DNA of 54,500 bases, filler included, from Jimgerdemannia flammicorona (taxonomy: Eukaryota), in assembly GCA_003990765.1 (NCBI GenBank). It is 3 parts of 3 records of this genome, joined end to end, with 100 filler letters (N's around TTAATTAATTAA, not from the genome) between each part and the next. Parts side by side here need not be neighbours in the genome. Positions count along the whole stretch, not along the records: positions 18,203 to 36,303 come from RBNJ01002306.1; 2 more parts are not named here. One strand, written 5' to 3'. A model generated the notes under the pieces. The model was not told the DNA's origin, did no database searches, and saw only the letters and a program-made list of their open reading frames with translations. Below, piece by piece: positions 10,259-40,290 of this stretch. The position numbers were made by a program, and so were the translations under genes. How positions within the stretch are numbered: position 1 is the first letter of the stretch; every line of letters begins with the position of its first letter.

Positions 10259-10350
10259 ACTTCCTCCTGAATAGATGATCTTGTCTCTGAGGCATCTCAT
10301 TCAAACTCCCAGGCTTCAACTGTCTGTATGATCTTGTACTGTTCAATCTG

Positions 10351-12042: not shown

Positions 12043-13146
12043 CTACCTCGGGTTGGTTTGCTGTGCCTGCAGGGGCATGGTGGGAGGAGGGCAATGGTGA
12101 TGAGTTGCCCCTTTATTGGTGTCAGATCGGTGCTTCCTCCACTTTTTCGTGGATTCTGGTGCCTTCAGCTGCATCTGGGGTGTACCCGTTTTGGTGCAGC
12201 ACCTTCTTCCTTTTGCCGTCGCCAACAAGGAGTTGTCTCGGTATGTCTCAGGCTACGTAGGGAGTCGGCCGACCTTGGGCATCAAGTGCTCAGTATAGGT
12301 TACCTGCAGGTCCTCGGTGCCTGTGATGGGGCTCTCTGGCTTTGGCGAGCTTCCCGGTGAGTGCGGTTCTGGTATAGGTGACTGCTTTTTGGGTGTTGTC
12401 GGGATGGGAGGAGAGATGGCCATCACAGATAGGCGGAAGGGCGATTACGGTGAACCAGTAGGGTGCCAGGCTGGGGGCGGTCGTCGGGGCTGGGGCAGGT
12501 GCTGCTTCGGTGGGGCCTTTTGATTGGTGCGGTACGGTTAGGTAGTAGGTGTCACTCTCGGCTTCTTTTGGCGGGTAGCGGGGTGGGGCCCCAGTCGTCA
12601 GGGGGGGTCGGGGGGCCTGAGGCTACCCATTTCAGGCATCTTGGCTGCACTTAACTGGAACCGGGAGCTGACATGGCAATGTGATCGAGGCCCGCAGGCT
12701 TGAGTAGTGGGGTATTGGGGGTTTCCTCCCACCTCACATATAAGTCCTTTACTCACCTCGACTGGGAGAACCAGGCCCTACCCACCATGTTGTGCTTTGA
12801 TGAGGGTTTTTTCTTTACCTATCATTCTCTTTGGGGTGGCAGGGGCTATTCTATTTGGCTCAGACGTGGCCTTGTACATACGTTGGGTTCTCAGGCATGC
12901 GCTTTCGGTCGTTGGCATATGGTTGGGTTTCCTCTGGTAGTAGGGAGAGCATGGTGCACAGAATGAGGTGCAGGCTTATCAGCCCTGCTGTGCCTGGCAT
13001 GGTCGAGCTACTGGACAATAGCTAGCCTAGGTTAATGGGGGGGCAGTGCTTGGTGGGTGGTGGGGGAGGGTTTTGGCCTATATAGTCTAGGTTCCCTTCC
13101 AATAAAAATCTGTGAGACATGAGTCCGTTAAACAAAAAAAAAAAAA
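12043..13146 (+). mobile_element. 5'-truncated non-LTR retrotransposon (family LINE-B, copy 1) inserted in RNase H of element B
   Basis: 17-bp TSD TGGTTACATCATAGGCT (12026-12042 and 13147-13163), AATAAA and a poly(A) tail. Removing it restores MKLQAYDVTIIHHPG..NADALS. Confidence 0.92.
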
Positions 13147-14575
13147 TGGTTACATCATAGGCTTGTAACTTCATTATCTATCTAGCATAGATTCCTTTGG
13201 GTTGTCCGGTTGTCAGTAGCCAGGTGAGAGCTGAGTAGTCCATCTGGATGGTGAAGTGTCTTCTAGCCAAGTAGTAGTAGAACTTTTCTATGGCCCAGAT
13301 GACTGCAAGGCATTCCAACTTGTAGGATTCATATTCTTTTTCAGCTCCTCAGGTTCCATGGCTAAGATATGCAATGATATACTCTTTTTTGTCTTCTTTT
13401 TAAGCTAGGACTGCTCCTAGTCCTTGTGCACTTGCATCCATCTAAAGGATAAATTCTTGGGTCCAATTGGGTCATCTGAGGATAGGTGCCTGGGTCAGTC
13501 TGACCTTGAGTTCATCAAATGCTTTCTGTTGTCTGCCAGTCCACTGGAACTTGGTATCCTTCTTATTGAGTTTATAGATCAGACCTGTGATGTTGGAGAA
13601 TCCTCTAATAAATCTGCAATAGTAGGAGGTAAGTTCCATGAAGGCTTGAGCTTCTGTGACGGTGGTGGGCCTTGGGTATGCTACTACTGCTTGTATCTTG
13701 AGGGGGTCTATGTGTATCCCATCTTGATTGATAATATGGCCAAGATAGGAGATCTCGATTTCTGCAAACTTGCACTTCTTGGGTTTGATATAAAGGCTGT
13801 GTTGTCTTAGTCTCTCCATTATCTGCTGTATGTGCTGCAGATGTTCCTCAGGTGTCTTGCTGTAGATGATTACATCATCGATATAGACCATTATCTATCT
13901 TCCCATGTCATAGTGGAAGATTTTGTTTATCATTCGCTGAAAGCTTGCTGGTGTATTGCACATTCCAAATGGCATTCGTAGGTAGATGTAGGTTCCATCT
14001 GGAGTAATGAAGGCTGACTTTTCACTTGCCGTATCTGTGAGTCCGATTTGGTGGAATCCTGAGTAAAAGTCCAAAGTGCTGTAGTACTGTACTTCGTCTC
14101 TCAGTATTATAAGGATATCACTGATGAGCGGCAGTGGTTGGCAATCCTTCTTGGTAACTGTATTGAGCTTTCTGTAGTTGACACAGAGCCTTGGGGCAAA
14201 TTCTCCAGGTTTGCTTCCTTTTTTCAGGGCTAGTACAACTGGTGAAGACCAGGGGCTGCTGGCTTCTTTGATGATGCCAGCTTCTTCCATCTGCTTGATT
14301 TCTTCTCTGAGCCATTCTCGGTAGGCTGGCAGGACAGGTCTTGCCTTCTGATAAATTGGTTTGGTGTCTCCAGTATCTACCTCGTAATAGTAGTGTGGGG
14401 TCTTTCCCTTGATATCCTTGAAATCTGTGGTAAGGACATCCTCGAATTTGTGGAGTATTTTCTTGAGTTCCTCCTTGAGTGGGAATTCATCTCCAATGAT
14501 GTAGCTGTGCTTGCTCATGTTTTCCTCCTTCTTATGCTCGAGTTTGGTGATCTTGGTACTGGTGAATACTCCTCT

Positions 14576-14992
14576 TCCTGTGGATCTGAATCCTTTCTTT
14601 CCTCTTTTCATTTCCTCCAGATTCTTGACTTCTATGATTCTTGGCTGTATGATTGGGAAGATCAAAATCTGTGCCAATCGGTCCTTCTTCTTGACTGGGA
14701 ATGAAATTGTAGGATTGTGATTTCTAGCAATGAGTAGAATTTCTCCAGTATAGTCTGAATCAATGACTCCTTCTTCGATTGTGATTTCGCTTCTAGCCAG
14801 GCTGCTTCTTGTCTTGAGAATCCTGACATAATCCTTTGGGATAGTCATCTCTAGTCCAGTTGCGAGTAGGGTGGTTGTCTGGGGTTCGAGTACAGTTTCT
14901 TCTACTGTAGTGATGTCCATTCCGGCTGTGTTTTCTGACTTGTATTCTGGCAAGACTGCATCAGGGTGGATCTTTTGAATCTTGACCTTGAT
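14576..14992 (-). CDS. dUTPase domain between protease and RT (element B)
   Basis: Motifs AGMDI, TRSSLA, GVIDSDYTG, DRLAQ and RGKKGFRSTG, in frame with RT in ORF 13895-15271. Confidence 0.93.
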
Positions 14993-15799
14993 TTCTTCTT
15001 CATCATCACTGTCTTCCAGGAGGGCTGGTGGTTCATCGTCTTCCTCCTTCTCTTCTTCTCCGATCTGTTTTTTGAGAGCTTTCTGCCTTCTTTCCAGGTA
15101 GATCTTCTTGGTTCCAATGGTGCACTGGTAGCAATCATTGACATGCTCTATATAGTATATCTTGATTTTATGAGGACAGACTCCTTGTGGGACATAGCCT
15201 TCTGCGATCTTCTTGCACCATTCTTCTTCACTCATCCATCCAACTTTCTTCTTCTTTGGAATAGTCACCATATAAGCTTCTTATTGCTCACTCTCTTCTT
15301 TCTCCATATCGGGCAGGACTCCTTTGTTGACATTGATGGGAATTCGTATCTTCTGTCCTTGGTAGGTGATCTGCATCTTCTGAGCATTGAGATCGATTAC
15401 CGCCTTGGCTTTGTGAAGCCATTGATTGCCGATGAGGATGTCATAGTTGGTGGCATTAGTTATGATTACATCTACTGGGATGGTTGCTCCTCCAATCTTG
15501 ATGAGAACATCCCAGATCTTTCCCAGAGGTGTGGCTCTTGTGCCATCGGCTGTGACAAACACCAGCTTAGTTGCTTCTTCCACATCCCAACCTAGGTGGT
15601 CCACTGCCTTCTTACTAAGGAGACATCCTCCTGCTCCTGTATCAATGATGGCTTCAAAGATTCTATTCTCGATTTGGCATGTTGCATAAGCAGAGATTTT
15701 GCAATTATCCTCACTTTCTTCTCCTGAGTCCTCTTGAATGTTATTGGCCTCAGTTATCTTCCATCCTTGTTTCTTAGTTATTTCAGCAAGTCCAAACCT

Positions 15800-17047
15800 C
15801 ATTTGCTGTCTGAATGTTGGAATTTCTGTGAGCTGACCAAAGGTTGCATTGACCTTTTGTTGACTGAGGTCCTTGAAGATGTCATACTTGAAGGTCTTGG
15901 TCTTGCAAAGCTTCTTTTCTTTTTCTCCTTCACTGGCTGGAGTGGTTCCTCAGATGATATCTTGAACTGCTTGCTCCAGCTCAATATCTTGGTCCATCTC
16001 TTCGGCTTGGCTTTCTGTGGCAGTTTCCATCCACTTTTCCACTGGGTTCTTCTTGGGTCTTCCTGGCAGTCTCTTGTAGGGTTCTTTGCGAGCATCCTTC
16101 TTGGTGGTCTGAGCAGGATAGGCCTCCCATTCCTCTTCATTAGAATCTCCAATTTCTTCAAAGGTGATTGTATTAGCCTGCTCCTTGTTTCGTGTGGCAT
16201 TGCTTGGTTGAGCCTTGTATTTGGTTTCACTCATACATTCATAAGAGTAGTGGCCTTCTTCTCCGCAGCTATAGCAGGTATCTTTCTTCTTGTCTGAGGT
16301 GGTGGCAAACTTCTGAACAGGGTGGCAGTCTCTTCCTCGGATTTTCTTTACCACATCTCCCAGGTGGGCAGTCATTTCAGCAAACCTTTTGGCAAGTTCT
16401 TCCATAGGGTCACTGTTCTTTTGCTGCTCTGTAGCTTTTGGTTGGGGTGTGTTTCAATTAATTATTGTGGTGGGGATCATACTGGTTGCCTTGAGTATCT
16501 CAATTCTGACTCCTGTAACTCTCTCCATTATATAGTCTTGTGGGTGTCTGGCTATCCAGTATCGCTGGGCATAGGTGACCTTCTGTGGCAGATCCAGAAT
16601 CACTGGTGATGAGTGGATAGCCATGGCTATTTCTGGGTGGACTCCTTTCATGAAGGTTGCTTCAGCTACTTGATCTTGGATAGCGACAGCATAATCTGCA
16701 AGGATTATCTAATATCAAATTCTGGTATAGAATGTGTTTGGATCCTCGCTTATTCCTTGGCATGTTGTATTGAGCTGGTCCTTCAGGGCTTGCTTGATCT
16801 TGTCTGTATAATATGTATTTCGGAGCCAGGTCTTCTGTGCTATCAGTATAGCATCGGCATCATTTCCTACATGGGTTGCAGCTGTGAATACTGCTCTGAC
16901 AGGACCTCATAGGCTGAATGGCATGAGGGCTACTTGCTGTACTGCTGTCAGAGTCCTTACAGCAGTATACTACTCGAAATTATCAATGAAGGTGATGATT
17001 GATTCATCTGAGGTATATTCATGGAATACTGGTGGTCTCATATCCAT
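15800..17047 (-). pseudogene. Gypsy gag with CCHC zinc knuckle
   Basis: MDMRPPVFHEY start after the PBS; CYSCGEEGHYSYEC knuckle at ~16230-16275. Confidence 0.85.
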
Positions 17048-17140
17048 CTTGTCTGGGTATTGGAGCTCGGTTTGTATGGTTGTTCAGGTAGTGGTAGTTG
17101 TTCGTTGTTCAGCTTGAAAGTGAGGGATTTGTCTTGAATT

Positions 17141-17158
17141 ACCAGCCAATGGGCACCA
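17141..17158 (-). promoter_or_regulatory. Primer-binding-site-like sequence (TGGTGCCCATTGGCTGGT)
   Basis: Starts with TGG 3 nt inside the 5' LTR boundary; cognate tRNA not identified. Confidence 0.7.
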
Positions 17159-17161
17159 AGT

Positions 17162-17627
17162 TGTAATGTAGCAGATGCTTACTTTTGAAAGTATGTCAGA
17201 TTTCTGTATCTTGAAAACTTGACCATTCTGACTCTCGCAGAGTCTCTTGAAGTTGTAGGGGAGAGTGGGTGAGTTTGAAGTGTATCTGCCACAGGCTTAC
17301 TAGTTCCTTTGCTATCTCTTTACTTTGAACTATTTCAATCTGAGGTTTATTCACTCTAAGATACTAGATTATTTATACAAGTTTACTAGCTATGAGATGA
17401 CTACTAAGTTACACGACTAAATTATGAGTCATTTAGACAATGTCTAGGAATTTAGACAATGTCAAAATGCTATACTAAATCAGGACATTCGATTTAGACA
17501 ATGTCTAGAAATTTAGACAATGTCAAAATCATAGGCTGCTAACTATAAGACTATACTACTTTGGGAATGGGTGTGATCAAGTGTCTATTCCCTATTTCCT
17601 TCTCCCTAATTCAGCTATACCGTCACA
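17162..17627 (-). repeat. 5' LTR of element B
   Basis: Direct repeat of 9792-10258 with TG...CA ends. Confidence 0.95.
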
Positions 17628-17720
17628 ATAGTAAAGTTGGGAAATCATTTATCCTCATATCCCAACATTAATAAATAATTAAATGTTTTTCATCCTACTT
17701 AAGGCAAATAAAATCCTTTC

Positions 17721-18102
17721 CTAGGCCGCCCCGATCTCAGTAACAAGCAACTTTACCACCTTGACGTGCCCGTTCTGATCAGCAAGGTTAAGCGCCGTCA
17801 ATCCTTGGTTGTTTGTGGCGTTGAGGTCCGCCCCGAACTCGGCCACGAGCAACCTCACGACCTCCACGTGCCCTTTCTGCGCACTCATATGAAGCGGTGT
17901 CCAATTATTCTCTTCTCTGGCGTTGGCATCCGCCCCGAACTCGGCGACGAGCAATCTTACGACCTCGACTTGCCCATTCAGCGCAGCTTGGTGAAGCGGC
18001 ATCCGCCCATCGTTTTTCTTGGCGTTGACGTCAGCCCCGAACACGGACACAAGTAACCTCACGGCTTCGATGTGTCCGTTCTGCGCAGCGACGTGAAGCG
18101 GT
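17721..18102 (-). CDS. C-terminal part of an ankyrin-repeat protein (5' part lost in gap)
   Basis: Four 34-aa repeats PLH.AA.NGH.EVVRLLV.EFGAD.NA; the frame is open up to the gap and CpG-rich. Confidence 0.92.
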
Positions 18103-18202
18103 NNNNNNNNNNNNNNNNNNNNNNNNNNNNNNNNNNNNNNNNNNNNTTAATTAATTAANNNNNNNNNNNNNNNNNNNNNNNNNNNNNNNNNNNNNNNNNN
18201 NN
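18103..18202. other. Assembly gap spacer
   Basis: 100-nt N run with central TTAATTAATTAA (stops in all six frames); identical spacer at 36304-36403. Confidence 0.97.
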
Positions 18203-18667
18203 TGATGGCAAAAATGGCAATTGTAGCAAGATTTGCGCTCCGGCCCAGGCTTAGAAGCTGGAGGATATGTATATTTCGAATGTTATTAGGAAAAAAATTC
18301 GAACATTGATTTAAAAAGAAAAAAAAAAAAAAAACTAACTTTTTCGAGCTACGTTATTGGGATCTGGTGGGGGACCTTGTGCTTGTGGACTGGCAGTGAG
18401 CTGGCGGTCAAGCTGGAGATCAGGGAGCTGAGGGTCAGCGAGCTGGGAGTCGGCGAGCTCGGCAACCTGGGTGTTGGCAAGCTCGGCAGGCTGGGTGTTG
18501 GCAAGCTCGGCAGGCTGGGTGTCAGCAAGCTCGGCAGGCTGAGTGTCGGCAAGCTGGGCATCTTTAGGGTGCCAAGCTTTAGGATGGTGAGCTGAAGCAC
18601 ATCGAGCTTGGGGGGGGCCAAGTAAATACTTATTGGCTGGGTGGTCATATCCATGTTTTCTCAACAT
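18203..18667 (-). CDS. 5' part of a spliced gene: ADTQPAEL repeats then a possible Zn2Cys6-like motif start
   Basis: Exon 18667-18340, GTTAGT...CTAAT...CAG intron 18339-18258, then in-frame TSKPGPERKSCYNCHFCH running into the gap. Confidence 0.55.
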
Positions 18668-18684
18668 AGCGGTGAATTAAGTGA

Positions 18685-19002
18685 GACGAAGCGAAGAACG
18701 AGGCGAAGTGAAGGATGAGGCGAAGCGAAGGACAAGGTGAAGGGAAGGACGAGGCGAAGGGAAGGACGAGGCGAAGCGAAGGACAAGGCGAAGCGAAGGA
18801 CGAGGCGAAGCGAAGGACAAGGTGAAGTGAAGAATGAGGTGAAAAGAACGAGAGGTGAAAGTAAGCTTTCGATATCTTAAATGTTCAAAAGCTATAACAT
18901 CTTTCAGAAGCTCTTTCGGAATCTCTCCGAAATCTCTTTCAGAAGCTCTTTCCGAATCTCTTTGAAATCTCTTTCAGAATCTCTTCGAAATCTCTTTCGA
19001 AA
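18685..19002. repeat. Short tandem repeats (~17-bp GCGAAGCGAAGGACGAG; ~12-bp GAATCTCTTTCA)
   Basis: Directly visible imperfect arrays at ~18685-18840 and ~18900-19002. Confidence 0.85.
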
Positions 19003-20059: not shown

Positions 20060-22408
20060 ATGTCTAAAGATCAAGAAGTACATTTAGGAGAAATCTCAGA
20101 ACTGTTGGATGATATATCGGAGGATATATCGGAGGATATATCAGATATCTCCACCAGTTCATTATCACCAACGAGTACGAGAATAAAAATAAAAACAAAA
20201 CCTGGTGATAGCTGGGTGTGGAATCATATCACAAAGGTAGTTTTATACATTGTGCTAATGGTTGAATTCATAGGGGTGATTGATCTCAGTTATAAGGGTA
20301 GGTTGTAAGTGGTTGAGGTTCTAATATAGTTTCATATCTCTCTATTCAAATAGAATTTACAAAGTAAGCTCATCAGTTGCAACCATTGCATGACTTGGAG
20401 CTATATATCAAAGGATGGCAATATCAACAATCTTAAATGACATCTCTGGAAGCATCACAATGCCATGCTCTTACCTCTCCAGCATGCTGAGAATCCTCGC
20501 TGGTCTAAGAAAGATGATATTGTGAGTATGGATAGAATGGAATTCGGGAAGTACTTAGGAGGTTATTAGAAAAATAATTGATCAAATTTTATTATTACAA
20601 ATAGGAACACACTAGCAAGACTTTAAGTGATGAAAATTTTCATCGGTTAATTGTCAACTTCATTGTCACTGGATATCAGCCATTCTCCACTATTGAAAAT
20701 GCTGGCTTCAAGTATCTCCTTCACATATTATGCCCTGATCTGGCCCTTCCATCAGCTGATACGATTTCACGAGTTATTCGAAAGGAATTCGAACTATTGC
20801 AGACTCAAGTGAAAGTAAGGCTAGCAGGGCTCAAGTCAAAGGTGTCACTTACACTTGATTGTTGGATATCGGATGTTAACATCAAGGCTTTTCTTAGAAT
20901 AACAGCCCATTGAATTGACAGTGATTGGAAGATACATGACATTATTTTAGACTTTGTGAATATCAGCGAAATAACACACACGAGTGCCAATCTTGCGAAA
21001 AGTCTAGAGCTGGTAATAGATGATTTATTGCCTAGTGACAATCAAATCATTGCTGTTGTGTGTGACAATGCTAGTAACAATGATACTCTGTTTGAGAATC
21101 TCCATTATCCACTTGCTCATGTACGCTGTTTCGGGCATGTGTTGAATCTCATCATTCATGATGCTCTTGGTTCTCTTAGCGAGCCCATTGGAAAGCTACA
21201 GAAGTTGATAAAGAAGATCAAAAATTCAGCGCAACGACAAGCACAACTGGCGAAGGTCTGTGAATCCTCCGGAATTCCCATTTTGAAGCCTCTCTTAGAT
21301 GTTACGACGAGATGGAGTTCTACACATGAAATGTTAGCACGTGCTCTGGAGATTCGTAAGGTAAGATTTTGAATCTATTTGTATAGATTTTGGAATACAA
21401 TTCAGAAGTATTTTGGTACTAAATAAATTGATATTACATTCAAATAGGGCTTGGATATATTGTGTGCTATGGATAAGCAAATGAGCGATATATCTGAAGA
21501 TGCATGTCAACAATTTGAATTGATTTGCCGATTTCTCGAGCCTTTTGCCAAAGTGACAACTGTGATGTCAGCTTCAAAGTATCCTACAATAGTGGCTGTT
21601 ATCCCACTATTTAATTGGCCATGTGATCACCTTGAAGATGTCATCGATACATATCAAACTGGTGAACATTTTAATCAGGTATATATATGATTTTGAAAGT
21701 AATTTTATTTGTGAATTTAGGAACTAATTTAGTAAGTAATTGGGAAGTAATATGTGTATATTTTTATTTTTTATAGATAATGCTTACCGCTGCTGAGAAT
21801 GCACATATGAAACTTCTAAAGTATTACTGCAAGATGACACCATTATACAGCATAGCTTCGGCCTTAGATCCACATATCAATATACGTTATTTCCATTGTA
21901 AGCAATGGAAAAAATCCTTAATTGATGAATGGAAGAATCAGATGGAACGTATCTGGGAAAAGGAGTGTAAGCCTGTTAATGCTGTCATTATACCTTCAAT
22001 ATCTCATGATGCCGATGATTTTATCAACTCAATATATAAGAAGAAACAGCATATCGATGTAGATGATGAGCTTGAATGGTGGGTGTTGTTTTTATGTTTT
22101 TTGATTGGCTTAGTTAATTTTCACTCATATTTCTCTGTTTCAGTTATTTGTCAGAGAATCCAGCTGATTCTCATATAGATATACTGGATTGGTGGCGGTG
22201 AAATCAGTTGGTATATCCTAATCTTTCACGAATGGCTCGCGATTATCTGGCTATTTCGGCGACATCTGTTCCATCTGAATGTATTTTTTCTATTGCTGGT
22301 GAGCTAGTGACTAAACGTTGAAACAGCTTGTGTGTAAATACAATTTGTGTATGCATGTATTTGGATTCTTGGTGGTCTTCAGATATTTTTCACTTTCAAT
22401 TACTCTGA
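20060..22408 (+). pseudogene. hAT-superfamily transposase (BED finger, DDE, hATC dimerisation domain), 5 introns, several stops
   Basis: SWVWNH..CNHC..NLK*HLWKHH (BED); TLDCW, CDNASN, RCFGHVLNL, TRWSSTHEML; WW..YPNLSRMARDYLAISATSVPSECIFS. GT-AG introns at ~20237-20353, 20522-20603, 21361-21447, 21679-21776 and 22079-22143. Confidence 0.93.
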
Positions 22409-22454
22409 ATATTATTCAAATATTTTCCGAATCATTTTTTCAGAGCAGAGTTCA

Positions 22455-22820
22455 GAGGGTCGGGTTCAGGGTCGGGTTCAGGGGTCGGGTTCAGGGTCGG
22501 GTTCAGGGGTCGGGTTCAGGTTTGGGTTAAGGGTAAATAACGGGTCAGGTGACATACATTTCCAGGTCGGGTTAAAGATGGGTAATATATCTTTCCAGGT
22601 CGAGTTAAAGATGGGTGATGTACAATTCTGGGTTGGGTTAAAGACAGGTGACATATTATTCTGGGTCGGGTTAAAGACGGGTGACATATAATTCCGGGTC
22701 AGGTTAAAGATGGGTGACGTATAATTCCGAGTTAGGTTAAAGATGGGTGACATCTAATTCTGGGTTGGCTGTTTTACGGGTCGGGTTTTGGGTTAATCGG
22801 GTTGGGTTTGCGGAGCACTA
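22455..22820 (+). repeat. hAT right subterminal repeats and TIR
   Basis: (GGGTCGGGTTCA)n, ~30-bp GGGTCGGGTTAAAGATGGGTGAC units, and the end CGGAGCACTA (reverse complement TAGTGCTCCG), followed immediately by chromovirus integrase sequence. Confidence 0.85.
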
Positions 22821-23618
22821 CTCTCTTGGAATGACCCCATTCTTTGCCAACACTAGACAAAATTCAAACACCCCTTTGACACTTATCTGAACTACTGAAG
22901 AACCCTCCACAGTCAAAGCCATTGAAGAATTCTTACTCTGAATGCGCAATTTAAGCCAGATTGCCATTGAGAATTTATCGCGAGCTCAAGAACAATAATC
23001 ACAGTATGTTAACCAACACTGCTGAGAAGAAACTTTTGATATTGGAGAAAAAGTCCTACTGGACATCAGAGGATACCGAGTTGACAACCTCAAGCACAGA
23101 CTATCTACAAAGCTGAACAGCAAGTTCATTGGACTATTCGAAGTCATTGCACAAGTCTCTCCAACCTCCTATAAATTGGCACTACCAGACACTATTAAGA
23201 TTCACCCAGTCTTTAATGTTCAATGTCTCAAGTAATACAATGAGAATAATAATGAACTATTCCCAAACTGGACCACCAAACCACCTGTACCTATCATTAT
23301 TAATGACCAAGAGAAGTACGAAGTTGAGCAGATCCTCAATAAATATGGCAACAAGAACTACCCTGAGTACCTTGTCAAATAGAAAGGTTACCCGATCCAT
23401 GATGCAATCTGGGAACCCAAGACCAATCTCCAGAATGCTACTGACCTAGTTCAGGAATATAATTCCTTAAACAACTAGAACCAAATACTCTACATCTATC
23501 TATACATACTATATACTATCCTCCTGAATATTATAATTATTGCAAACCAAACCAAGAACTCAGCAGAACAAAATTAAAAGGCCCCGACGAGGATGTCGAA
23601 AGCTAAGAAGGGGAGAGT

Positions 23619-25650
23619 TGTAAGCATACAACCTCCAAGCCACCGAAATTATATATGACCTCTGAACAAATCTGGAAATCACCTGCTTGATCATGAAGCT
23701 GAGTCAAACCGAAGTCACAGCGCACAAAGCTGAGTCAATATGAAGTCACAGAACACAAGATTTACACAAACAGAATCTTATCAATCAGGATCAAATATAT
23801 ATATACTGAGCACTGAGATGCGTCAAATCAGAGAACCAAAATAAAACAATAACCACAACTTCAAAATATACAAACATGACCACTGAGATCTATAACTATA
23901 TCCATGCTGACATTTGGAATGCCATTGTCAACCAAGCTACACCCCCTCTGCCCCTCATGAATATCCATAGCCTGGCACTCCTCTACTTTGTGGAAGCCTG
24001 ATGGAATGCCCTGAACATGCTTAGCGAGACCCACCAAATTGGACAAATCTCAAGCTACTACCAGATCAGCCACCTCCTGGAAGACATGGTTGAACACCAC
24101 CATGATACAGACATTACTCAGATGTCTCAACACCAGAAGCTCATCACCTACAAACATCGAGAACTCTTCTATGAGTACAGTACCATTATTTCCTGCCTCT
24201 GAGTTACTACCAGCAAAATGATTGCTACTCTGTCCTATAGCTGAATCGATGATATGATATAAGAACTCAACCACAAGTACCTTGAGTACGTCGAAACCAC
24301 AGACAGAACCTTCCCACACCCCAATGATCAAATCCTGCAAATGCCCCAAGTTGGATATGCCATGAAGGACATCTACAATATAATCCACTTTGATAAAGAT
24401 GAAGCAGAAGACAATGATCCCTCTGACACTGACATGATCTCTAGCTAAGGATCTCTGCCAACCCTGATCACTCCGCCAATCTTGCCGATGAACTTACAAC
24501 AGTTCATAACAGCATATGAGACTTATTGAGACAATGACCACTGGCATGAATACCAACCTGCATTCACTCCCGATTACTTCAACTACAATAAAGAGACTGA
24601 AGAATACAACCTGTACCTCCAGACAACCCTTGAGATCGAACCAACCACTCCACCACCAGAGTACGAGTGACATGAACCACAGCTACCAGCATACTACAAC
24701 CTTACAACTCACAGTGCCGTAACCTATAGAAGGTATGCAGACAGCGAATCCAATGAAAGTGAAGATGATGCACCACTCCTTCATCCACCAACACCTTATC
24801 CAGCATATGAGACAGATGATGCTATCTTGTGGGATAGAGATGAAGTTCCAATGTATTATTACCTCAGCGAACAAGGAGAAGTAATCTGCAAACTATTATT
24901 TCTAGATGACTACTTCATCAGAGATGATGCAATCGATGGTGATATCATTGAGGACTACCCAGACAGCACCTAAACCCATAAATAGCCTAGCAGTCATAGT
25001 ATAGTTAGATTAGTCTTGTACAATGTGACTGTGAACTGACTCAGCAGTCAGACGATCTCTTGACATGTTAGATCACACTTGTACTATATGACTGCATTCT
25101 GACTCAGCAAGGCACTTAGTGCTACATCCATATCTAGTATAGTCCAGATAGCCCCTCACTAGTATAAATACCCCCTCCCCCAGACCTCAGAATCTCAGAC
25201 TCGAACACCCAAGAACATTCCTGAATACTTCTCCACAATACCCCTTCATATAACTACTCCTAGTATAGCAATATCATGAATAGCAAATAAACCTATTCCA
25301 TAACCCACAAACCACTCTTAAGTAAATCCACTCCTTGTTAGGTCCTACTCCTAACCTTGTCACGAAATTTCCTAATTGGGTATTGTCTGTAGCGATACAC
25401 CAATTCAACTAAGCTGGCCTTAGTTTCTTGAACTTCCTGAAATACGGAAAATCCTGAATATCCAGAACTAGTCCGAAAAAAGGACTTTGGTTGAGACGTC
25501 AACCCAATCTTGAAATCAATAAGCATAGAGGACACACTCCATATGAAATTAATCTTGACCATAAGAAAACGGTCTTCCAGAACATCCAGAATATCTAAAA
25601 AATCTTTCCAGAACTACATAATGGTTACCCTAAAAAGTAACCCTCTTATA
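23619..25650 (+). repeat. ~2.03-kb LTR of chromovirus family
   Basis: Starts right after the PPT; homologous to 37377-39442 (ends CTCTTACA and is followed by a PBS-like site) and to 36404-36942. Confidence 0.85.
23876..24973 (+). pseudogene. 365-codon ORF inside the LTR (unknown protein, acidic Pro/Tyr-rich C-half)
   Basis: Single frame from ATG 23876 to TAA 24973, broken only by point stops; the homologue is open in the young copy (36654 to gap). Confidence 0.75.
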
Positions 25651-28600
25651 ATTTTGGTGGCTTGGAGATTGTATGCTTACAACTCTTCCCTTCTTAGCTT
25701 TTGACATCTTCATCAGAGGTCTTTTAATTTTGGTCTAGTATTATTATACTATTTAGATGGTCAAAAGTCTGATAAGGTCCATTTTTTTCAGAAAGTGGTA
25801 TGCTCATAGTATAGTTATCTAATGCATTAGATTTATATATTAAAGGGTCATATATTCAATGCTATGTATTGGAAGTAATTCTGATATCATTTACTGCTAG
25901 AGAATTTCCTCTAAGGAATCTTCTTAAATATCTATACCTCATTTTCATCAGTGATATAGGAAGAATAAGCTGGCTTTCAGTTTTGCTATTTTTCTAGAGA
26001 ATCAGTATTTTGTCTTGACTTGCTGAGTTCTTGATTTTGTTTATGATAATTATAAGGATACTTGATGTTCAGAAGGGGTAATATATAGTATGATAGATAC
26101 TGGGGTACTTAGGTTTTCAGTTGTTCAAAGAATCATATTTCTGAACTAAGTTAGTAGTATTCTAAAGATTGGTTTTAGGTTCTCATGTCATGTTATAGAT
26201 TGAGTAACCTTTCTATTTGACAAGGTATTCTGGATAGTTCTTGTGGCCATATTTGTTGAGAATTTGTTCAACTTTATATTCTTCTTAGTTATTAATAATA
26301 ACAGGTATAAGTGGTTTTGCAGTTTGGTTCAGAAATAGCTCATCATCATTTTTATTATATTACTTGAGATGAAGACTGGGTGAATCTTAATAATATCTGG
26401 TAGTACTAATTTGTAAGAAGTTAGAGAAACTTGTATAATAACTTCAAATGGTCCAATAAATTTACTATTCAGTATTGTAGATAGTATATACTTAAAGTTG
26501 TTAACTCAGTATTCTCAAATATCTAATAGAACTTTTTCTCTAATGTCAAAAGTTTCCTCTTAGTAGTACTGGTTAATATACTGTAACTATTGTTCTTGAG
26601 CTCATAATAAATTCTTGATAGTAATCTGACTTAAGTTGTATATTTAGAGTAGGAATTCTTCAATAGCTTTGACTATAGAGAGTTCATCAGTAGTTCAGAT
26701 AAGTGTTAGAGGGGTGTTTTGGTTTTGTCCTATATTGATGAAGAATGGAGTCATTCTAAGAGAGGTTTGCTTGCTATTATTATAGATAAACTTGACTGCA
26801 GTAAGATATTCATGCCAATTATCTTATCTATAGAAAATATAGTTCCTTAGTATTTGCTCCAGTGTTCAGTTTATTCTTTCAGTTTAGCCATCAGTTTTAG
26901 GATGAAAGGCTGTGGATAGTGCAAATTTCATTTCAAGGTATATATGGAGGACTTTCCAAAAATAGCTGGTAAATTTTAGGTCTCAATTATTACCAATGAT
27001 CTTAGGAAAACCATGATAGCAGAAGATGTTATCAAATAAGAGTGTGGCTATGTCTAGTACTATTACAGTAGTAATAATTGATATAAAGGAGGCTTATTTG
27101 CTGAGATGGTCTATAAAGACAACAATTACATCTTTTCTGTTCTTAGTTCAGAGTAGTTGTATAATAAAGTCTATAGAAATTTATTCCCAATTAGCAGATA
27201 GTACTGAGATGGGGTAGAGTAGGCTAGGTTTTACTAATATTGAGAACTTGTTATATTGGCAGATATCATAGGAAGTGATATAGGTCTTTAGCTGATCTGC
27301 TATATAGGGTCAATAGAAGTTTCAGAAAATAACTTCATAGTATTTATCAAATTCTAAATGTTCAGCTATAGGGGTGTTATGACATTCAAATAGAATAGTC
27401 CTTCAGAGGTCTTAGTTGTTTGGAATATACAGTCTATCCTTGTAGTAGATAGCATTATCCTTCAGTTAGTATTGATGATACTGAATGTACTTATCAGTAT
27501 CATTACTACTTAGGATTTCTTAGAGTACTTGAGCTTCTTTATCATCAGTATATACTATAATAATTTATTCCATAATAGAGTTGATAACCAAGGTGAGAGT
27601 TTGGATAACTTCTTTGATTGGTGATCTGGAGATTGTATCAGCAACAATATTTTTCTTGTCAGGACAATACTGAATTTTATAGTCAAAGTTGATAAAAACT
27701 TTTATCTATTTGGCTTACTTTTGGAAAAAGATAGCCTAGGTCTTGATATTGACTAATGATTTGTGACCAGTTAATAGGATAAAGTATACTCCTTCTAAGT
27801 ATGGTCACTATTTGATCAGAGTGTCTACAATAGCTAACATTTCCTTCTCATATATTATATAGTTGATTTTAGTATTATTGAATTTATAGGAGTAGTAGGC
27901 CATAGGGTATCCTTCTTATATGAGCACTATTCCAAGAGCTAGATCAGAGTTATCAATAGTAACTTTATATAGTATAGTTAGGTTTGCTGCTTAAAGTACT
28001 GGAGTGATTATCAAGATATTCTTCAATATTTGAAAGGCTATATCTTATTTGGGTCCTCAATTTACAAGATTGTTGAAGTCTTTCTCTTATTTCATAGTCT
28101 AAGGCTGTTCTTCTTTCTTGCTATACTTGGTCATTTGAGTAAAGGCAGTAGCAATCTTAGCAAAGTTTGTAATAAATTATTGATAATAGTTTTCTAATCT
28201 CAGGAATGACTGAAGGTCTTTTAGCTTCTTGGGTCTGAGCTAATCCTTGATTGTGGAGATTTTGCTGGAGTCTACTTTGATTCTATTCAACATGATAATA
28301 TATCTAAGAAATTGAATTTCTTTTAAGAAAAATTCACATTTGTTGAGTTTTGCAAAGAGTTGGTTTTCTTGGAGTTTCAGTAGTATTAGTTCAAGATGTT
28401 CAAGATATTCCTCCAGGGTTTTGCTGAAGACTAGGATGTTGTCAATATAGATAATAACAAATTTGTCTAGATATAGGTATAAGATAGTATTCATCAGTGT
28501 CTGGAAGGTTGCAGGAGTATTAGTTAAATCAAAAGGCATAACCAGAAACTCAAAATGTCCATAGAGAGTTTAGAAGACTATCTTATAGATGTCTTTTTTT

Positions 28601-28660
28601 TTTTATAGCAATTTGTCAGTAACTATTTTACAGATCAAAAGAGCTCATAAATTGTCTATT
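25651..28660 (-). mobile_element. Heavily mutated chromovirus copy D (RT, RH, IN, chromodomain, PPT, 31-bp LTR stub)
   Basis: MPFDLTNTPATFQ..IYIDNILVFS; chromodomain ~26130-26290; PPT ~25682-25697; LTR start TGTAAGCATACAATCTCC at 25681. Confidence 0.88.
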
Positions 28661-29730
28661 GTGGGGCAGTAGGAGAGAGACAATAGTGATGAATTGCCTC
28701 TTTATCAGTGTCTAATCAGTGTCTTCTCTACTTTTTTATAGTTTCTGATACCTTTGACTATATCTGAGGTACATCTGTTTTAGTGTGACACTTTCTTCCT
28801 TTTGTCATTACCAATAAGATGCTGTCTCAGTGCATCATGGGTTACATAGGAAGTCAGCTGACCTTGGGCATCAAGTGTCCAATATAGGTTACTTACAGGT
28901 CCTCAGTACCTATGATGGGGCCCTCTGGCTTTGGTGAGCTTCCTGGTGAGTATAATTTTAGTATAGGTGACTGTTTTTCAGAGTGATGTTGGGATGGAAG
29001 AGGAGATGGCTATTACAGATAAGAGGAAGGATAATTATAGTAAACCAATAGGATGTCAGGCTGGAGGCAGTCATCAGGGCTAGGGCAGGTGCTGCTTTGG
29101 TGGGGCCTTTTGATTGATGCAGAGCAGTTAGGTAGTAGGTATCACTCCTGACTTCTTTTGGTGATTCAGTAGGTTAGGCCCCAGTCATTGAGGGAGGTCC
29201 GGGAGCCTGAGGCCACCCATTTCAGATGTCTTGACTGTACTCAACTAGAACTGAGAGCTGACATAGCAATGTGATTGAGGCCTGTAGGCTTAAGTAGTAG
29301 GATATTGGGAATCTTCTCCTACCTCACATATAAGTCCTTTACTCACCTCAACTAGGAAAACTAGGCCCTATCCACTGTGATGTACTTTGATGAGGGTTTT
29401 TCTTTACCTGTCATTCTCTTTGGAGTGGTAGGGGCTATTCTATTTGGCTCAGGCATGGCCTTATATATACATTGGGGTCTCAGATATATACTTTCAGTTA
29501 TTAGTATATGGCTGGATTCCCTCTGATGGTAAGAAGAGCATAGTATATAGAATAAGGTGCAGGCTACCATAGACCCTACTATATCTAGCATAGTTGAGCT
29601 ATTGGACAATAGCTAGCCTAGGTTAATAGGAGAGCAGTGCTTAATGGATAGTGGGAGAGAGTTTTGGCCTATATAGTCTAAGTTTCCTTCCAATAAAAAT
29701 TCGTAGGACTCTGAGTCTATAAAATAAAAT
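28661..29730 (+). mobile_element. LINE-B copy 2 (5'-truncated)
   Basis: Colinear with 12070-13140; ends in AATAAA and an A-rich tail. Confidence 0.88.
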
Positions 29731-30499
29731 TTTATTTTATTTTTTTTATTTTTTTTTATTTTTTTATTATAAAATGAGTAGAGAATAGAGGAATAGTTTA
29801 GAGCAAGATGTGATACTGTTATGGTGGATATAAAGATTGGTGATAAAAGATCAAGCAGCAGAAAACAATAATCTTATATGAATTTTTATAACAAAACAAA
29901 GAAAATGGAATAAAGTGTTTTCTGAAGTAAGGTATAATAGATGTGCAATCTGCCCTTGACACTACAGTATGTGGAGGTCTTTATTCAAAATTGAGAACAA
30001 AGTTCAGATAAACAAAGATATAGATCTAACCCTGGAATTCTGAAATCAGAATAGTATATAAGTGCCTGAGCCTTGCCCCGATCCAAACAATAGTCTAAAT
30101 CAGGCTTCATCGATCTACATATGTGACAGGCCATTAAAAACCCAATATAGAAACAATCGGAAAAAGGTACTGGTCATATGATCTAATATTATACATACAT
30201 AAACAAATGCTAAAAATGGAACTAGACTAATGATATATTATGTATCATTATATAATTGTCACTTATAGGTTTAAAAACCTAAAAATCATTAGCACCTGAA
30301 GGTGCAGATATCAGGCCTAAAGCCTTGTGACCATAGCAGAGTAGAGCCTTAGTACTGGAGTAAGTGAAGCAAGCAGAGGTAGACAGACATTACAGAGCAT
30401 AGATACATAGGCATCAGGCCTAGAGTCTCATACCAGAGATTGTCTGATAATTTTTCATGTTTTTAAATATTGTATAGTATATATAGGCAGTGCGGCCTT

Positions 30500-35125: not shown

Positions 35126-36303
35126 ACACCCCTTTCTCTGCTACCTTACTGGTCATAATAGTTTGGTAGGCAATCTTCTGAGTCTACTTTCCACAATTAT
35201 TACCCCCTCTACCTTGGGTTGGTTTACTATACCTATTGCAGGGTAGTGGGAGGGAGGCAATAGTGATAAGTTGCCCCTTTATCAGTGTTGGATTAGTGTC
35301 TTCTCTACTTTTTCGCAGTTTCTGGTACCTTCGGCTACATCTGGAGTATATCTGTTTTGGTGCAGCACCTTCTTCCTTTTGCCATTGCCAATAAGGTGCT
35401 GTCTCAGTGTGTCTCAGGCTATGTAGGGAGTCAGCTGACCTTGGGTGTCAAGTACTCAGTATAGATTACCTGCAGGTCCTCAGTGCCTATGGTGGGGCCC
35501 TCTGGCTTTGGTGAGTTTCCCAGTAAGTGCAGTTCTGGTATATGTGACTGCTTTTTGGGTGTTGTTGGAATAGGAGAGAAGATGGCCATCACAGATAGGA
35601 GGAAGGGTGATAATGGTGAACCAGTAGGGTGCCAGGCTAGGGGTGGTTATCAGAGCTGGGGCAGGTGCTGCTTTGGTGGGGCCTTTTGATTGGTGTAGCA
35701 TAGTTAGGTAGTAGGTGACACTCTCAGCTTCTTTTGGTAGATTGGCAGGTTAGGCCCTGATCATCAGGAGGGATCAGAGGGCCCAAGGCTATCTATTTCA
35801 GATATCTTGGCTATACTCAACTAGAACTGGGAGCTGATACAGCAATGTGATCGAGGTCTACAGACTTGAGTAGTGGGGTATTGGGGGTCTCCTCTCACCT
35901 CACATATAAGTTCTTTACTCACCTCAACTGGGAGAACCAGGCCCTACCCACCATGTTGTACTTTGATGAGGGTTTTTCTTTGTCTGTCATTCTCTTTGGG
36001 ATGGTAGGGGCTATTCTATTTGGCTTGGGTGTGGCCTTATACATATGTTGGGTTCTTGGGCATATGCTTTCAGTCATTGGCATATGGTTGGGTTTCCTCT
36101 GATAGTAGGGAGAGCATAGTATGCAGAATGAGGTGCAGGCTGCCATTGGCTCTGCTGTGCCTAGTATAGTTGAGCTGCTGGACAATAGCTAGCCTAGGTT
36201 AATGAGGGGGCAGTGCTTGATGGGTGGTGGGAGAGAGTTTTGGTCTATATAGTCTAGGTTCCCTTCCAATAAAAATCCATGGGATATTGAGTATTAATAA
36301 ATA
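35126..36303 (+). mobile_element. LINE-B copy 3 (longest; includes probable ORF2 C-terminal remnant)
   Basis: Colinear with 12043-13140 and extends ~70 nt further 5'. The frame ..VW*AIF*VYFPQL..LFRSFWYL..LRLCRES resembles an L1-type ORF2 tail. Confidence 0.85.
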
Positions 36304-36403
36304 NNNNNNNNNNNNNNNNNNNNNNNNNNNNNNNNNNNNNNNNNNNNTTAATTAATTAANNNNNNNNNNNNNNNNNNNNNNNNNNNNNNNNNNNNNNNNN
36401 NNN
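36304..36403. other. Assembly gap spacer
   Basis: N run with TTAATTAATTAA. Confidence 0.97.
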
Positions 36404-36942
36404 GACATCTGGGTAATGTCTGTATCATGGTGGTGTTCGACCATGTCTTCCAGGAGGCGGCCGATCTGGTAGTAGCTTGAGATTTGTCCGATTCGGTGGG
36501 CCTCGCTAAGCATGTTCAGGGCATTCCATCGGGCTTCCACAAAGTAGAGGGGTGCCAGGCTATGGATATTCATGAGGGGCAGAGGGGGTGTGGCTTGGTT
36601 GACAATGGTATTCCAAATGTCAGCGCGGATGCGGTTGTAGATCTCAGTGGTCATGTTTGTATGTTTGGAAGTTGTGGTTGTTGTTTGTTTTGGTTCTCTG
36701 ACTTGACGCGTCTCGGTGCTCAGTATATATGCATTTGGTCCTGATTGGTAAGGTTCCGTTTATGTAGATCTTGTGTTCCGTGACTTCGTATTGACTCAGC
36801 TTTGTGCGTTGTGACTTCGGTTTGACTCAGCTTCATGATCAAGCAGGTGATTTCCAGATTTGTTCGGAGCTCGCGTGTGATTTCAGTGGCTTGTTCAGAG
36901 GGTGACGTATAATTTCGGTGGCTTAGAGGTTGTGCGCTTACA
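36404..36942 (-). mobile_element. Young chromovirus LTR (copy E) with intact start of the LTR-ORF
   Basis: Begins TGTAAGCGCACAACC at 36942 with no PPT before it (5' or solo LTR); CpGs intact; ORF MTTEIYNRIRADIWN... open from 36654 into the gap. Confidence 0.88.
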
Positions 36943-39900
36943 ATTACTATACTATATATTACTCTTCTGAATATTGTTTAAAGCACTCTTATAATTATTA
37001 TAACCAAAATTAAGAACTCAGCTACATCTTAGTAAATTAAGACAAAAGAAATACTAACTCTCTAGAAAAATAGCAAAACTGAAAGTCAGCCTATTCTTCT
37101 CATACTATTGATAGAAAATAAGATATAAATATTTAAGAAGATTTCTTAGTGGAAATTCTCTAGTAGTAAATGATATCAGAATCACTTCCAGTATATAGTA
37201 TTGAATATATGACCCTTTAATATATAAATTCAATATATTAGACAACTATACTATAAGTATACTAATTTCTGAGAAAAAAAGACATTACTAGACTTCTGAC
37301 TATCTAAATAGTATAATAATACTAGACTAAATTTGAAAAACTCAATAAGAATGTTGAAAACTAAAAAGAGAAGAGTTATAAGTATACAACTTCTAAGCTA
37401 CTGAAATCACACATCACTCTCAGAACAAATTTAGAAATTACATTCAAGATCATAAAGCTAAGTCAAACCAAAGTCACAGATCATAAAGCTAAGTGAACTC
37501 AAAGTTACAAAATATAAGATATATAGAAATAGAATCTTACTAATCAAGATCAGAAGTATATATACTGAATATATAGTACTTAAAACAAAGAATCATAATA
37601 AATTAAAACTATAATCATAACTCTCAAACATATATTCAGCTATGATTACTGAAGTTTATAACTATATCTATACTGATATTTGGAATATCATTATCAACTA
37701 GACTACAGTACCTCTGCCTCTTATAAATATCTATAACTTAGCATCCATCTACTTTATAAAAGCCTGATGGAATATCCTGAATATATTTAGTAAGATCTAT
37801 CAAATTAGACAAATCTCAAGTAACTATCAGATCAGCTGTCTTCTGGAAGATATGATTAATCACTACTATAATACAGATATTACTGAAATATCTCAACACC
37901 AGAAGCTCATCATATATAAATATTAAGAACTCTTTTATAAGTATAGTACCTTTATTCTTTACCTCTGAGTCACTACCACTAAAATAGTTGGCACTCTGAT
38001 AAATGGTCAAATTGATGATATAGTGTAAGAACTTAATTACAAATATATCAAGTATACCCAAACTATAGATAGACCCTTCTTATACTCAGATAATCATATT
38101 TTGTAAATATTCTAAGTTGGATATACTATGAAGAATATCTATAATATAATCCAGTTTAATGATAATAAGACAAAAGACAACAATCTCTCTGATACTAATA
38201 TGGCTTCCAGCCAAGGATTTCTACTAACTCTGATTACTCTACCAATCTTATTAATAAACTTATATGTAATAGTTTATAACTGTCTACAAGATCTATTGGA
38301 ATAATAATTACTGATATGAGTACCAATCTATATTTATATCTAACTACTTTAATTATAATAAAGAAATAGGAGAACACCACCTATACCTCCAGATAACTCT
38401 CAAACCAACAGTTCTATCACCTAAGTATGAGTGACATAAAGAACAACTATTAGCTTACTACAACCCTACAACATATAGTGCTATAACCTACTGAAGATAT
38501 ATAGATAGTAAATCTGATAAAAGTAAAGATAATATACTCTTTCTCTATCCTATTCAGTATATGAAACAGATGATGCCATCCTGTGAAAAAACAACTTTAT
38601 TTCAATATACTATTATATAAATAAACAGAAAGATATAATCTAGAAACCACTCTTTCTAAATAATTACTTTATCAGAAATGATATCATCAATGGTGACCTT
38701 ATTAAAAAGTATCCAGATATATAGTATCTAAAATCTATAAATAGCTTAGCAGTTATTAGTATAGTAGATTAACCTTATATAAACTATGTAACTATATTCT
38801 GACTCATCAGTCAGTTGATCTCTTGATATATCAGTTCACACTTTATACTATATAACTATATTCTAACTCATCAAATACTAAAGTATTATATCCATATTTA
38901 GCCTAGTCCAGATAGCCTCCTATTAGTATATATAATCTCTCCCCCAGATCTCAGAGACTCAGACATGAATAGATAGAAATTTAGATAAGAATTAGACAAA
39001 TACTTCTCTATATAAATATCTCTTCATATACTACTCCAAGTATTAGCCAATAGCAAATATCATAAATAGTAAATAAATCTATTTAATAACCCATAAATTA
39101 CTCTTAAGTAAATCTATACTATATTTGATCCTACTCCTAACTAGATTCAGAAATTTTCTAATTAGATATTGTCTATAGTGATATGCTGATTTAACTAAGC
39201 TGGTCTTAGTTTCTTAAACTTCCTGTAATAAGGAAAATCCTGAATATCTAGGACAAGTCTGAGAAAGAACTTTGATTGAGATATCAACTCAATCTTGAAA
39301 TCAATAAGTATAGAAGATATACTCTATATGAAATTAATCTTGACCTTAAGAAAACAGTCTTCTAGAATATCTAGAACTACTCAAAAACTCTTCTAAAACT
39401 ATATAATATATACATAGCACCTTTACAAAGTACTCTCTTACAACTTGATAGTGGCAATTTATAATTCAATTCTATTTTAAGATACTTTTTTACTCAGTAA
39501 TAACTCTCTATAGAAAATTTCTACAAGTTGGTATAAAGTCCAACTACTGAACTGGAATTTATTCCAAACTATCTGACAATCTGAAGTAAATTAAACCTGA
39601 TATATATAATAAGTGTGATAAGCTTCATATATTTAAAGAAGTACTTCAATTAAATTAGCAGATATATAGGTAAAACTCTATTCAATGAACTTCTTGCTTT
39701 ATATCCTACAAGTCAAGATGAAGAAGATCTTATAGAAGTCTTCTCTACTCCTCTCAATAAGAGTTTTATAAGCTCTGCAAATCTGAGTAATCTAGGATAA
39801 CTAGTAGCTATCTTCCTAGCCTTAGTTTCTCACAAAGCCCAAGCCTCTATAACTAAGTAGCTCAACTTTACTGACTATTACTATACCAGCACTAAGCTTG

Positions 39901-40259: not shown

Positions 40260-40263
<4 letters not shown>
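36943..40263 (+). mobile_element. Very degenerate chromovirus copy F: 3' UTR, PPT, LTR (37377-39442), PBS-like site, putative gag remnant
   Basis: Homology to 25700-26100 (inverse) and to 23619-25650; the LTR ends CTCTTACA followed by ACT-TGATAGTGGC (possibly a decayed TGGTAGCG initiator-Met PBS). Confidence 0.8.

Positions 40264-40290
<27 letters not shown>

Follow-up and report, generated by a model that had tools for sequence, protein, structure and literature searches.

A 365-codon open reading frame inside the probable 2-kb long terminal repeat of a chromovirus of Jimgerdemannia flammicorona

Accessory genes in and around LTRs

The long terminal repeats (LTRs) of retrotransposons are usually regarded as non-coding promoter and terminator modules. 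In the betaretrovirus mouse mammary tumor virus (MMTV), the open reading frame (ORF) sag lies in the U3 region of the LTR and encodes a superantigen, whose function and route of expression are known. The nef gene of the human and simian immunodeficiency viruses (HIV and SIV) and the bel and bet genes of foamy viruses are accessory genes overlapping the U3 region of the 3′ LTR. Foamy viruses use an internal promoter to express a transactivator whose target is the LTR promoter. Cassandra, a non-autonomous plant element of the class of terminal-repeat retrotransposons in miniature, carries in its LTR a 5S RNA gene that is read by polymerase III. Here we describe a sense ORF of 365 codons in the genome of the fungus J. 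flammicorona (assembly GCA_003990765.1), which very probably is a genuine gene that was under selection in the past and is carried by a true chromovirus LTR of 2 kb. It lies in a 54.5-kb stretch of DNA, hereafter called the window, in which three contigs are joined by runs of N (18103-18202 and 36304-36403) with a TTAATTAATTAA linker. The evidence comes from this window, two database proteins, and short metagenome contigs.

The sequence-only reading of this DNA had likened the frame to MMTV sag and HIV nef. The likeness in position holds: as in MMTV, the LTR contains, 3′ of the polypurine tract, a sense ORF several hundred codons long, which would thus be duplicated at the ends of the provirus. 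MMTV differs in being a vertebrate retrovirus with an env gene, and no likeness to it in sequence or, with low-confidence models, in fold was found. With nef, bel, and bet the locus would share the placing of a regulatory accessory gene at the 3′ end running into U3, and the foamy virus circuit may serve as a model for the arrangement of promoter, ORF, and second promoter discussed below. However, those genes belong to complex retroviruses and overlap the LTR only partially, whereas here the ORF and its putative promoter lie wholly within a fungal LTR; homology was not found in this case either. Cassandra would share an independently transcribed gene inside the LTR, but its gene is an RNA gene, and the window contained neither matches to Rfam nor tRNA genes.

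Extra ORFs have been described in plant Ty3/gypsy elements (Grande, RIRE2, Retand, Ogre, and elements with env-like ORFs) and, in antisense orientation, as brtn in the Boty element of Botrytis (PMC7264820, accessible part). Like the present frame, these are family-wide additions to LTR retrotransposons without database relatives, and Boty is fungal as well; they differ in position, being internal, in either orientation, and in most cases falling in the stretch from pol to the 3′ LTR (PMC7264820), whereas the frame studied here is inside the LTR. The phrase "within the LTR" does not occur in the accessible text of that review. A position of the plant type, in the internal region 5′ of the polypurine tract, was considered for our frame and rejected, as its ATG at 23876 is situated 257 nt past the LTR start at 23619 and the whole ORF falls inside the LTR block. 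Ogre has a similarly long LTR (1.9-6.5 kb, compared to ~2 kb here) but is a plant element outside the chromoviruses, and the available part of a review on giant elements treats long LTRs as non-coding (PMC6431247). Narrow, non-exhaustive phrase searches of the literature, with supplementary tables such as those on fungal elements in PMC3248453 outside their reach, brought up no LTR-borne ORF of a retrotransposon; the one paper found with the wording that an LTR contains an ORF deals with MMTV (PMC9412291). As far as the accessible parts of both reviews go (PMC7264820, PMC6431247), known extra ORFs are internal, and what is new here is the unusual place, an accessory ORF wholly inside the LTR.

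Such a location would have several consequences. The gene dose would be doubled in each element, solo LTRs, the commonest remnant, would keep coding capacity, and the fate of the gene would be tied to LTR-homogenising recombination and to reverse transcription. The protein would escape any genome annotation in which LTRs are masked. An accessory layout resembling that of sag, nef, and bet in a fungal chromovirus would also offer a tractable case for studying the origin of such genes.

The LTR and the reading frame inside it

The ORF-bearing family is represented in the window by the copies C to G (Table 1). Pfam was searched with stop-to-stop ORFs of at least 50 amino acids, covering 110 of 110 ORFs of contig 2 and 126 of 274 of contigs 1 and 3 (65 of 148 and 61 of 126, respectively), mostly on the strand of the elements and leaving out 48000-54500 and much of 1-6000. 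The pol gene of copy C ends with the domains SH3_Tf2-1 (58.5 bits) and Chromo (PF00385, 41.5 bits with a cut-off of 25.1). In copy D the Chromo match (26.6 bits, cut-off 25.1) likewise follows SH3_Tf2-1, both above their cut-offs, and an RVT_1 match is located upstream of them at 28243-28569 (-); no integrase core scored in this incomplete copy. Copy G, an internal fragment without LTR at ~42728-45857 (-), showed a weak RNase H match. Because SH3_Tf2-1 and Chromo end the gene upstream of the polypurine tract in both C and D, we assign the family to the chromoviruses, i.e., Ty3/gypsy elements with a chromodomain, in agreement with the sequence-only reading. Copy C is truncated upstream at ~22821, where its homology with copy D stops and where a tandem array of 33-bp units and the remains of a hAT-like element adjoin it. 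The internal region of copy D runs to ~28584-28600 and is broken inside the reverse transcriptase (RT) domain by a 1.09-kb poly(A) retroposon. The three ORF-bearing copies are all dead; E is the least mutated (GC content, 0.486) and is 91% identical to C (0.412), whereas F (0.273) is 73% identical to C.

The limits of the LTR were fixed by comparing the junctions of these copies. In copy C the LTR starts with TGTAAGC at 23619 and ends with CTCTTATA at 25650, and a polypurine tract is found directly 5′ of the LTR start in C, F, and D. Copy E begins with the same TGTAAGC in opposite orientation to copy F, adjoining the DNA that follows pol in F, and has neither a polypurine tract nor pol in front, a pattern expected if an element nested in F had left its 5′ LTR or a solo LTR there. 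Beyond the end CTCTTA(C/T)A stands the inverted LTR start of D in the case of C and unrelated DNA in the case of F, and TGTAAG at one terminus is the inverted repeat of CTTACA at the other. In total, four starts (C, D, E, and F) and two ends (C and F) with different flanks were available. Copy C appears to have inserted into the 3′ LTR of copy D, because its LTR end is followed by the first 31 LTR nucleotides of D in inverted orientation and then by the polypurine tract and pol of D. One contig of sequencing run X2 (see below) joins 25279 to exactly 23619, a weak observation with a depth of 2 and 31 letters on the short side; none of the listed sequencing pieces spans 23618/23619 with 31 letters on each side. 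These results support the view that the 2-kb block behaves as an LTR whose termini are fixed at several independent junctions, and the boundaries first read from the polypurine tract of copy C, 23605-23618 and 23619-25650, proved correct.

An alternative would be that the LTR is much shorter (~25000-25650), that the purine run at 23605 is not a functional tract, and that the ORF lies between pol and this shorter 3′ LTR. Extra ORFs in that place are common in plant elements (PMC7264820, accessible part), the promoter-like part with the candidate TATA box TATAAATA and an AATAAA motif is located within the last 650 bp, and no 5′ LTR was seen in the window. We consider this very unlikely, given that E starts at the identical TGTAAGC beside unrelated DNA, that the termini form inverted repeats, and that the LTR fragment of D also begins right after its polypurine tract; the X2 joint at 23619 adds weakly to these arguments.

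A minor difference was noticed near the LTR start, where copy C is without ~32-39 nt that are present in copy E (near 36890) and in contigs of runs X2 and X4. In the latter, 39 letters stand between 23649 and 23657, and the piece absent from C nearly repeats the CAAGCCACCGAAAT segment beside it.

A site resembling a primer binding site (PBS) had also been proposed immediately after the LTR of copy F and was not supported. This LTR is preceded by a polypurine tract and is therefore a 3′ LTR, and a search of Pfam with three read-through frames of the following 3.3 kb (39444-42728) remained without a significant family, the only row being a DUF996 match at chance level (E value, 0.016; 15.9 bits with a cut-off of 31.3). 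The most open frame there (39654-40262, 203 residues) had no match among 79 candidates, so that neither a PBS nor gag is supported at this place.

Within the 2-kb LTR, the sense frame was recovered from three copies in the states originally described. In copy C it is interrupted by seven in-frame stops without a frameshift, in copy E codons 1 to 83 (36654 down to 36404) are intact with no stop until the sequence enters the assembly gap, and in copy F the frame is decayed from 37642 onwards, with 14 stops in 358 codons aligned to C and indels of +4, -6, and -10 nt. Over 23876-24973 the three frames of the plus strand contain 7, 14, and 38 stops and those of the minus strand 6, 25, and 24. The damage resembles that of repeat-induced point mutation (RIP): E and C show 45 differences, and in 39 of these copy C has T for C or A for G of copy E, while from C to F the C>T changes affected 106 of 184 CpA and 17 of 22 CpG sites compared to 32 of 143 CpT sites, and G>A changes affected 67 of 116 TpG sites. 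Transitions are thus concentrated at CpA/TpG, and here at CpG too. All seven stops of copy C are TGA or TAA, codons that RIP-like transitions produce, and for five of them another copy or a relative has arginine, glutamine, or tryptophan one transition away.

Two intact relatives of the encoded protein were found among 5.8 billion clusters (~15 billion proteins) and 1.84 billion representatives. P0004 (128 amino acids) has the same start methionine and is 94% identical to the protein of copy E and 82% to that of copy C. P0003 (247 amino acids) is 60% identical to residues 115 to 364 of copy C, with 79% positives and no gaps other than two of 2 residues each; its stop falls at the same position, so that the two proteins tile the frame. 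P0004 originates from a 1180-bp metagenome contig of the Joint Genome Institute and P0003 from a 998-bp contig in ENA, and both are singleton clusters. The search at near-length gave one relative among 647 candidates, that at shorter lengths one among 33, and an exhaustive profile search gave three matches, the third of which (P0005; E value, 6.2e-5) was dropped as spurious, being a tandem-repeat protein matching ~58 positions. Among the sites that distinguish C from F, P0003 has the state of F in 30 of 104 and P0004 in 4 of 46. This is suggestive of two subfamilies, C/E/P0004 and F/P0003, but no more than that, since each protein represents another portion of the frame. DNA of the relatives was not found in two scans of metagenome contigs and one scan of viral contigs.

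The family itself could be followed in sequencing runs, 9 of 11 of which were listed with small shares (0.05-0.18), from seven studies comprising soil metagenomes and a coded organism A. No RNA run was among those listed, which carries no information on expression. In four runs (three soil metagenomes and one of organism A), short contigs 80 to 99% alike (3746, 479, 750, and 397 per run) covered 22821-25650 in all 30 bins; contig depth was not used as evidence. Single contigs span the ORF start (records 11 and 12 of X2) and the ORF stop (record 31 of X4). The family is widespread in soil samples, as the contigs of all four runs cover the entire region.

As RIP makes only transitions, the transversions between copies C and F were taken as a record of their divergence before inactivation. 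In the ORF they are distributed over the three codon positions as 18, 5, and 27 (chi-square, p = 6.5e-4), and as 16, 4, and 22 after removal of 15 nt around each gap (p = 0.0025). The LTR flanks lack this periodicity, with 17, 19, and 15 on the 3′ side of the ORF and 8, 9, and 6 on the 5′ side. Of 48 transversions in sense codons, 15 were synonymous and 33 non-synonymous, with 13% synonymous changes expected. A comparison of non-synonymous and synonymous change, which the sequence-only reading had asked for on genome-wide LTR copies and which was made here with transversions of the C/F pair, gave a ratio (omega) of 0.34 (one-sided p = 0.00096), which is not near 1 and is the lowest of the six frames (0.66 and 4.6 for the other sense frames; 0.79, 0.48, and 4.6 for the antisense frames). 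The transversion rate was 4.6% in the ORF and 8.0% in the LTR outside it (Fisher p = 0.002). An antisense gene in register with the ORF was rejected, as the frame in question has an omega of 0.79 (p = 0.32) despite its only six stops; we regard its openness as a by-product of the sense codon usage.

These data also bear on the possibility that the frame is a neutral relic, captured or arisen de novo, and that base composition, RIP context, or alignment only mimics constraint on it. The death of all three copies, the lack of relatives outside the element family and of a confident fold over two thirds of the length, the use of a single pair of copies, and the rather open antisense frame would all fit such an origin. 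It would leave unaccounted for the 3-base periodicity of the transversions, a type of change that RIP does not make, which is confined to the ORF, as well as the lowest omega in precisely this frame and a 60% identical relative open over 247 codons with in-frame gaps and a shared stop. We therefore judge it unlikely. From the intact fragments that tile the frame, the periodicity, and the omega of 0.34 we conclude, on the basis of one pair of copies, that the frame was in all likelihood translated and selected in active ancestors.

The predicted protein and candidate promoters of the LTR

The 365-residue protein is very acidic (63 aspartate plus glutamate and 14 lysine plus arginine residues) and contains 32 tyrosine and 26 proline residues. 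AlphaFold2 modelled the N-terminal 128 amino acids as five helices with modest confidence (mean predicted local distance difference test score [pLDDT], 61; predicted template modelling [TM] score, 0.49), and no confident structure was obtained for the C-terminal 247 amino acids (AlphaFold2 pLDDT, 30.9; ESM Atlas, 0.39). The models thus predict a helical N-terminal domain of ~105 residues followed by a long acidic tail rich in tyrosine and proline and modelled without structure. The C-terminal half had been described beforehand as acidic, proline/tyrosine-rich, and like an activator or a disordered region; composition and models bear out the first part of this description and the lack of confident structure, and likeness to an activator stays a suggestion. 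The protein had no Pfam family at an E value of ≤1, hence neither Retrotrans_gag nor a zinc knuckle, and a sequence profile search of the PDB gave no match at an E value of ≤10. Foldseek, which had been recommended as a check and was run with the low-confidence N-terminal model only, returned no match at an E value of ≤0.001. With the same model, VIA-align found assorted helical chains with a best Z score of 7.0, a level common for helical bundles, and for the C-terminal part the ESM Atlas yielded no usable match by features and TM scores of ≤0.30 by structure. A PPxY late-domain motif was also considered and dropped, the PPEY of copy C being absent from P0003.

Short motifs on both sides of the ORF outline how the LTR may be expressed. 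Two CTGAGTCA sites (23699 and 23730) precede the ORF and are both kept in copy E (36792 and 36823), which also has CATATATAC aligned to the TATA-like run of the candidate promoter P1. Past the ORF stop, two CTGACTCA sites (25036 and 25099) precede the candidate TATA box of the putative main promoter P2, to which TATATATA of copy F is aligned. The motif CTGASTCA, pairs of which thus precede the ORF and TATAAATA, occurs 16 times in the window, a count that includes matches on both strands at four palindromic places, compared to 5.67 ± 2.75 expected, and none of 100 shuffles reached 16. Its core TGA(C/G)TCA is a site for basic leucine zipper proteins of the Gcn4/AP-1 type. P1 (23699-23805) would give rise to a separate ORF mRNA of ~1.5 kb and P2 (25036-25170) to the genomic RNA, with the U3/R border near 25200, and both transcripts would end at the poly(A) signal of the LTR itself near 25290. 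The location of TATAAATA and AATAAA, both downstream of the stop at 24973, suggests that the ORF lies in U3; it would then be present twice per element and could be expressed from solo LTRs. Judged by these motifs, each LTR may form a self-contained transcription unit.

The layout of P1, two CTGASTCA sites and a TATA run as in P2, ~70 nt before the ATG, would also fit a different division of labor, in which P1 is the promoter of the genomic RNA and the ORF, although real, is the first cistron in a very long R/U5 region and encodes a leader or gag-like product. This would agree with the finding that no gag of the family was detected among the ORFs scanned in the window. R would then have to span ~1.4 kb, up to the AATAAA motif, and the strongest TATA box lies past the ORF stop. 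For a gag-like product, the Pfam result given above is also unfavorable, and the strongly acidic protein has the opposite charge of nucleocapsid-type proteins. In our view this makes a genomic P1 improbable.

Taking all data together, we lean towards a joint explanation in which a true 2.03-kb chromovirus LTR in a RIP-bearing fungus carries a sense accessory gene of 365 codons that was once under purifying selection, and in which the scheme of the LTR as a transcription unit is read from motifs. Several observations weigh against it. A full-length element, including a 5′ LTR with PBS and gag, was not present in the 54.5-kb window, and scans of the window did not detect gag of the family. The selection test was made with one pair of heavily mutated copies and 48 to 50 transversions, and one antisense frame is nearly as open as the sense frame. 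At the stops in codons 123 and 265 the homologues have glutamine, which is two steps from TGA. P0003 and P0004 probably stem from the same element family and hence are not independent evidence. Short motifs served to place the promoters, the polyadenylation site, and the borders of U3, R, and U5, and no family, motif, or fold in the searches of Pfam, the PDB, Foldseek, and VIA supports any function of the protein.

Analogy with the retroviral genes raises the possibility, which we rate as rather low, that the protein is an element-encoded regulator which transactivates LTR promoters or protects them from silencing and has no structural or enzymatic role. Equally speculative is the extended model in which each LTR would be an autonomous gene with promoter, 365-codon ORF, second promoter, and poly(A) site, and its acidic disordered protein a transactivator or anti-silencing factor for the LTR promoters of the family. 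If this model were true, the element would leave behind a functional gene for a trans-acting protein at every site where a solo LTR remains, and a circuit from internal promoter via transactivator to LTR, like that of foamy viruses, would have evolved independently in a fungal retrotransposon of DNA targeted by RIP and heterochromatin.

Table 1. Features of the ORF-bearing chromovirus family in the window
Feature	Position	Strand	Remarks
Copy C, 3′ end of pol: integrase C-terminal SH3 (Tf2-1 type) and chromodomain	22825..23478	+	Pfam
Copy C, polypurine tract	23605..23618	+	Purine run AAGAAGGGGAGAG at 23605-23617, then one T
Copy C, LTR (2032 bp), TGTAAG...CTTATA	23619..25650	+	Start recurs in D, E, and F; end in F
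Two CTGAGTCA sites in a short tandem repeat 5′ of the ORF	23699..23737	+	Candidate upstream promoter element
TATA-like run ~70 nt before the ATG	23796..23805	+	Candidate core promoter P1
Copy C, 365-codon ORF	23876..24973	+	Seven in-frame stops (5 TGA, 2 TAA), no frameshift
Two CTGACTCA sites past the ORF stop	25036..25106	+	Candidate element of main LTR promoter P2
TATAAATA	25163..25170	+	Candidate TATA box of the genomic-RNA promoter
AATAAA	25286..25291	+	Candidate polyadenylation signal; conserved in F
Copy D, first 31 nt of LTR (25681 down to 25651) and polypurine tract (25695 down to 25682)	25651..25695	-	
Copy E, first 539 nt of LTR	36404..36942	-	Cut by assembly gap
Copy F, remnant between pol stop and LTR	36943..37377	+	Polypurine tract at 37364-37376
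Copy F, LTR (2065 bp)	37378..39442	+	Heavily mutated; 3′ end CTCTTACA; ORF remnant 37642 to ~38724

Neighboring elements in the window

The window is a nest of dead transposable elements. Immediately 5′ of the truncated copy C, a hAT-like transposase remnant extends over ~20600-22530 (+); its sole Pfam match is a weak DUF659 row below the cut-off, and its read-through shows a motif that looks like the dimerisation region at the C-terminus of hAT transposases. The 5′ break of copy C coincides with a tandem array of 33-bp units (22546-22776; ~7 copies with 75 to 82% identity).

The retroposon that interrupts copy D is present in three copies of ~1.09 kb (12043-13145, 28656-29740, and 35207-36292), which are GC-rich and unmutated and have AATAAA and a poly(A) run at the 3′ end. 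The one in element A is located between the RNase H and integrase domains and is flanked by a 17-bp target duplication, TGGTTACATCATAGGCT. It looks like a short interspersed nuclear element or a processed non-LTR element that is younger than the surrounding RIP damage.

A nearly complete Ty3/gypsy element of another family occupies 9792-17628 (-), with 468-bp LTRs (9792-10259 and 17162-17628) that are 93% identical. Its domains are a gag zinc knuckle, a protease, a dUTPase domain fused before RT, RNase H, and integrase, and a diverged second copy of this family lies in inverted orientation at ~5890-9176. An RVT_1 match was found at 1696-2295 (-). The regions 1-5000 and 40269-41382 are strongly C-rich and G-poor (GC skew of ~-0.5 at ~49% GC), and a 1.1-kb repeat is common to 1-1123 and 40269-41382 with 67% identity. 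A purine-rich tandem repeat of at least nine 17-bp units resembling GAGGCGAAGCGAAGGAC is situated at 18649-18868. The only clearly host-like coding sequence seen was an intact ankyrin-repeat ORF at 17724-18101 (-), which reaches the end of contig 1.

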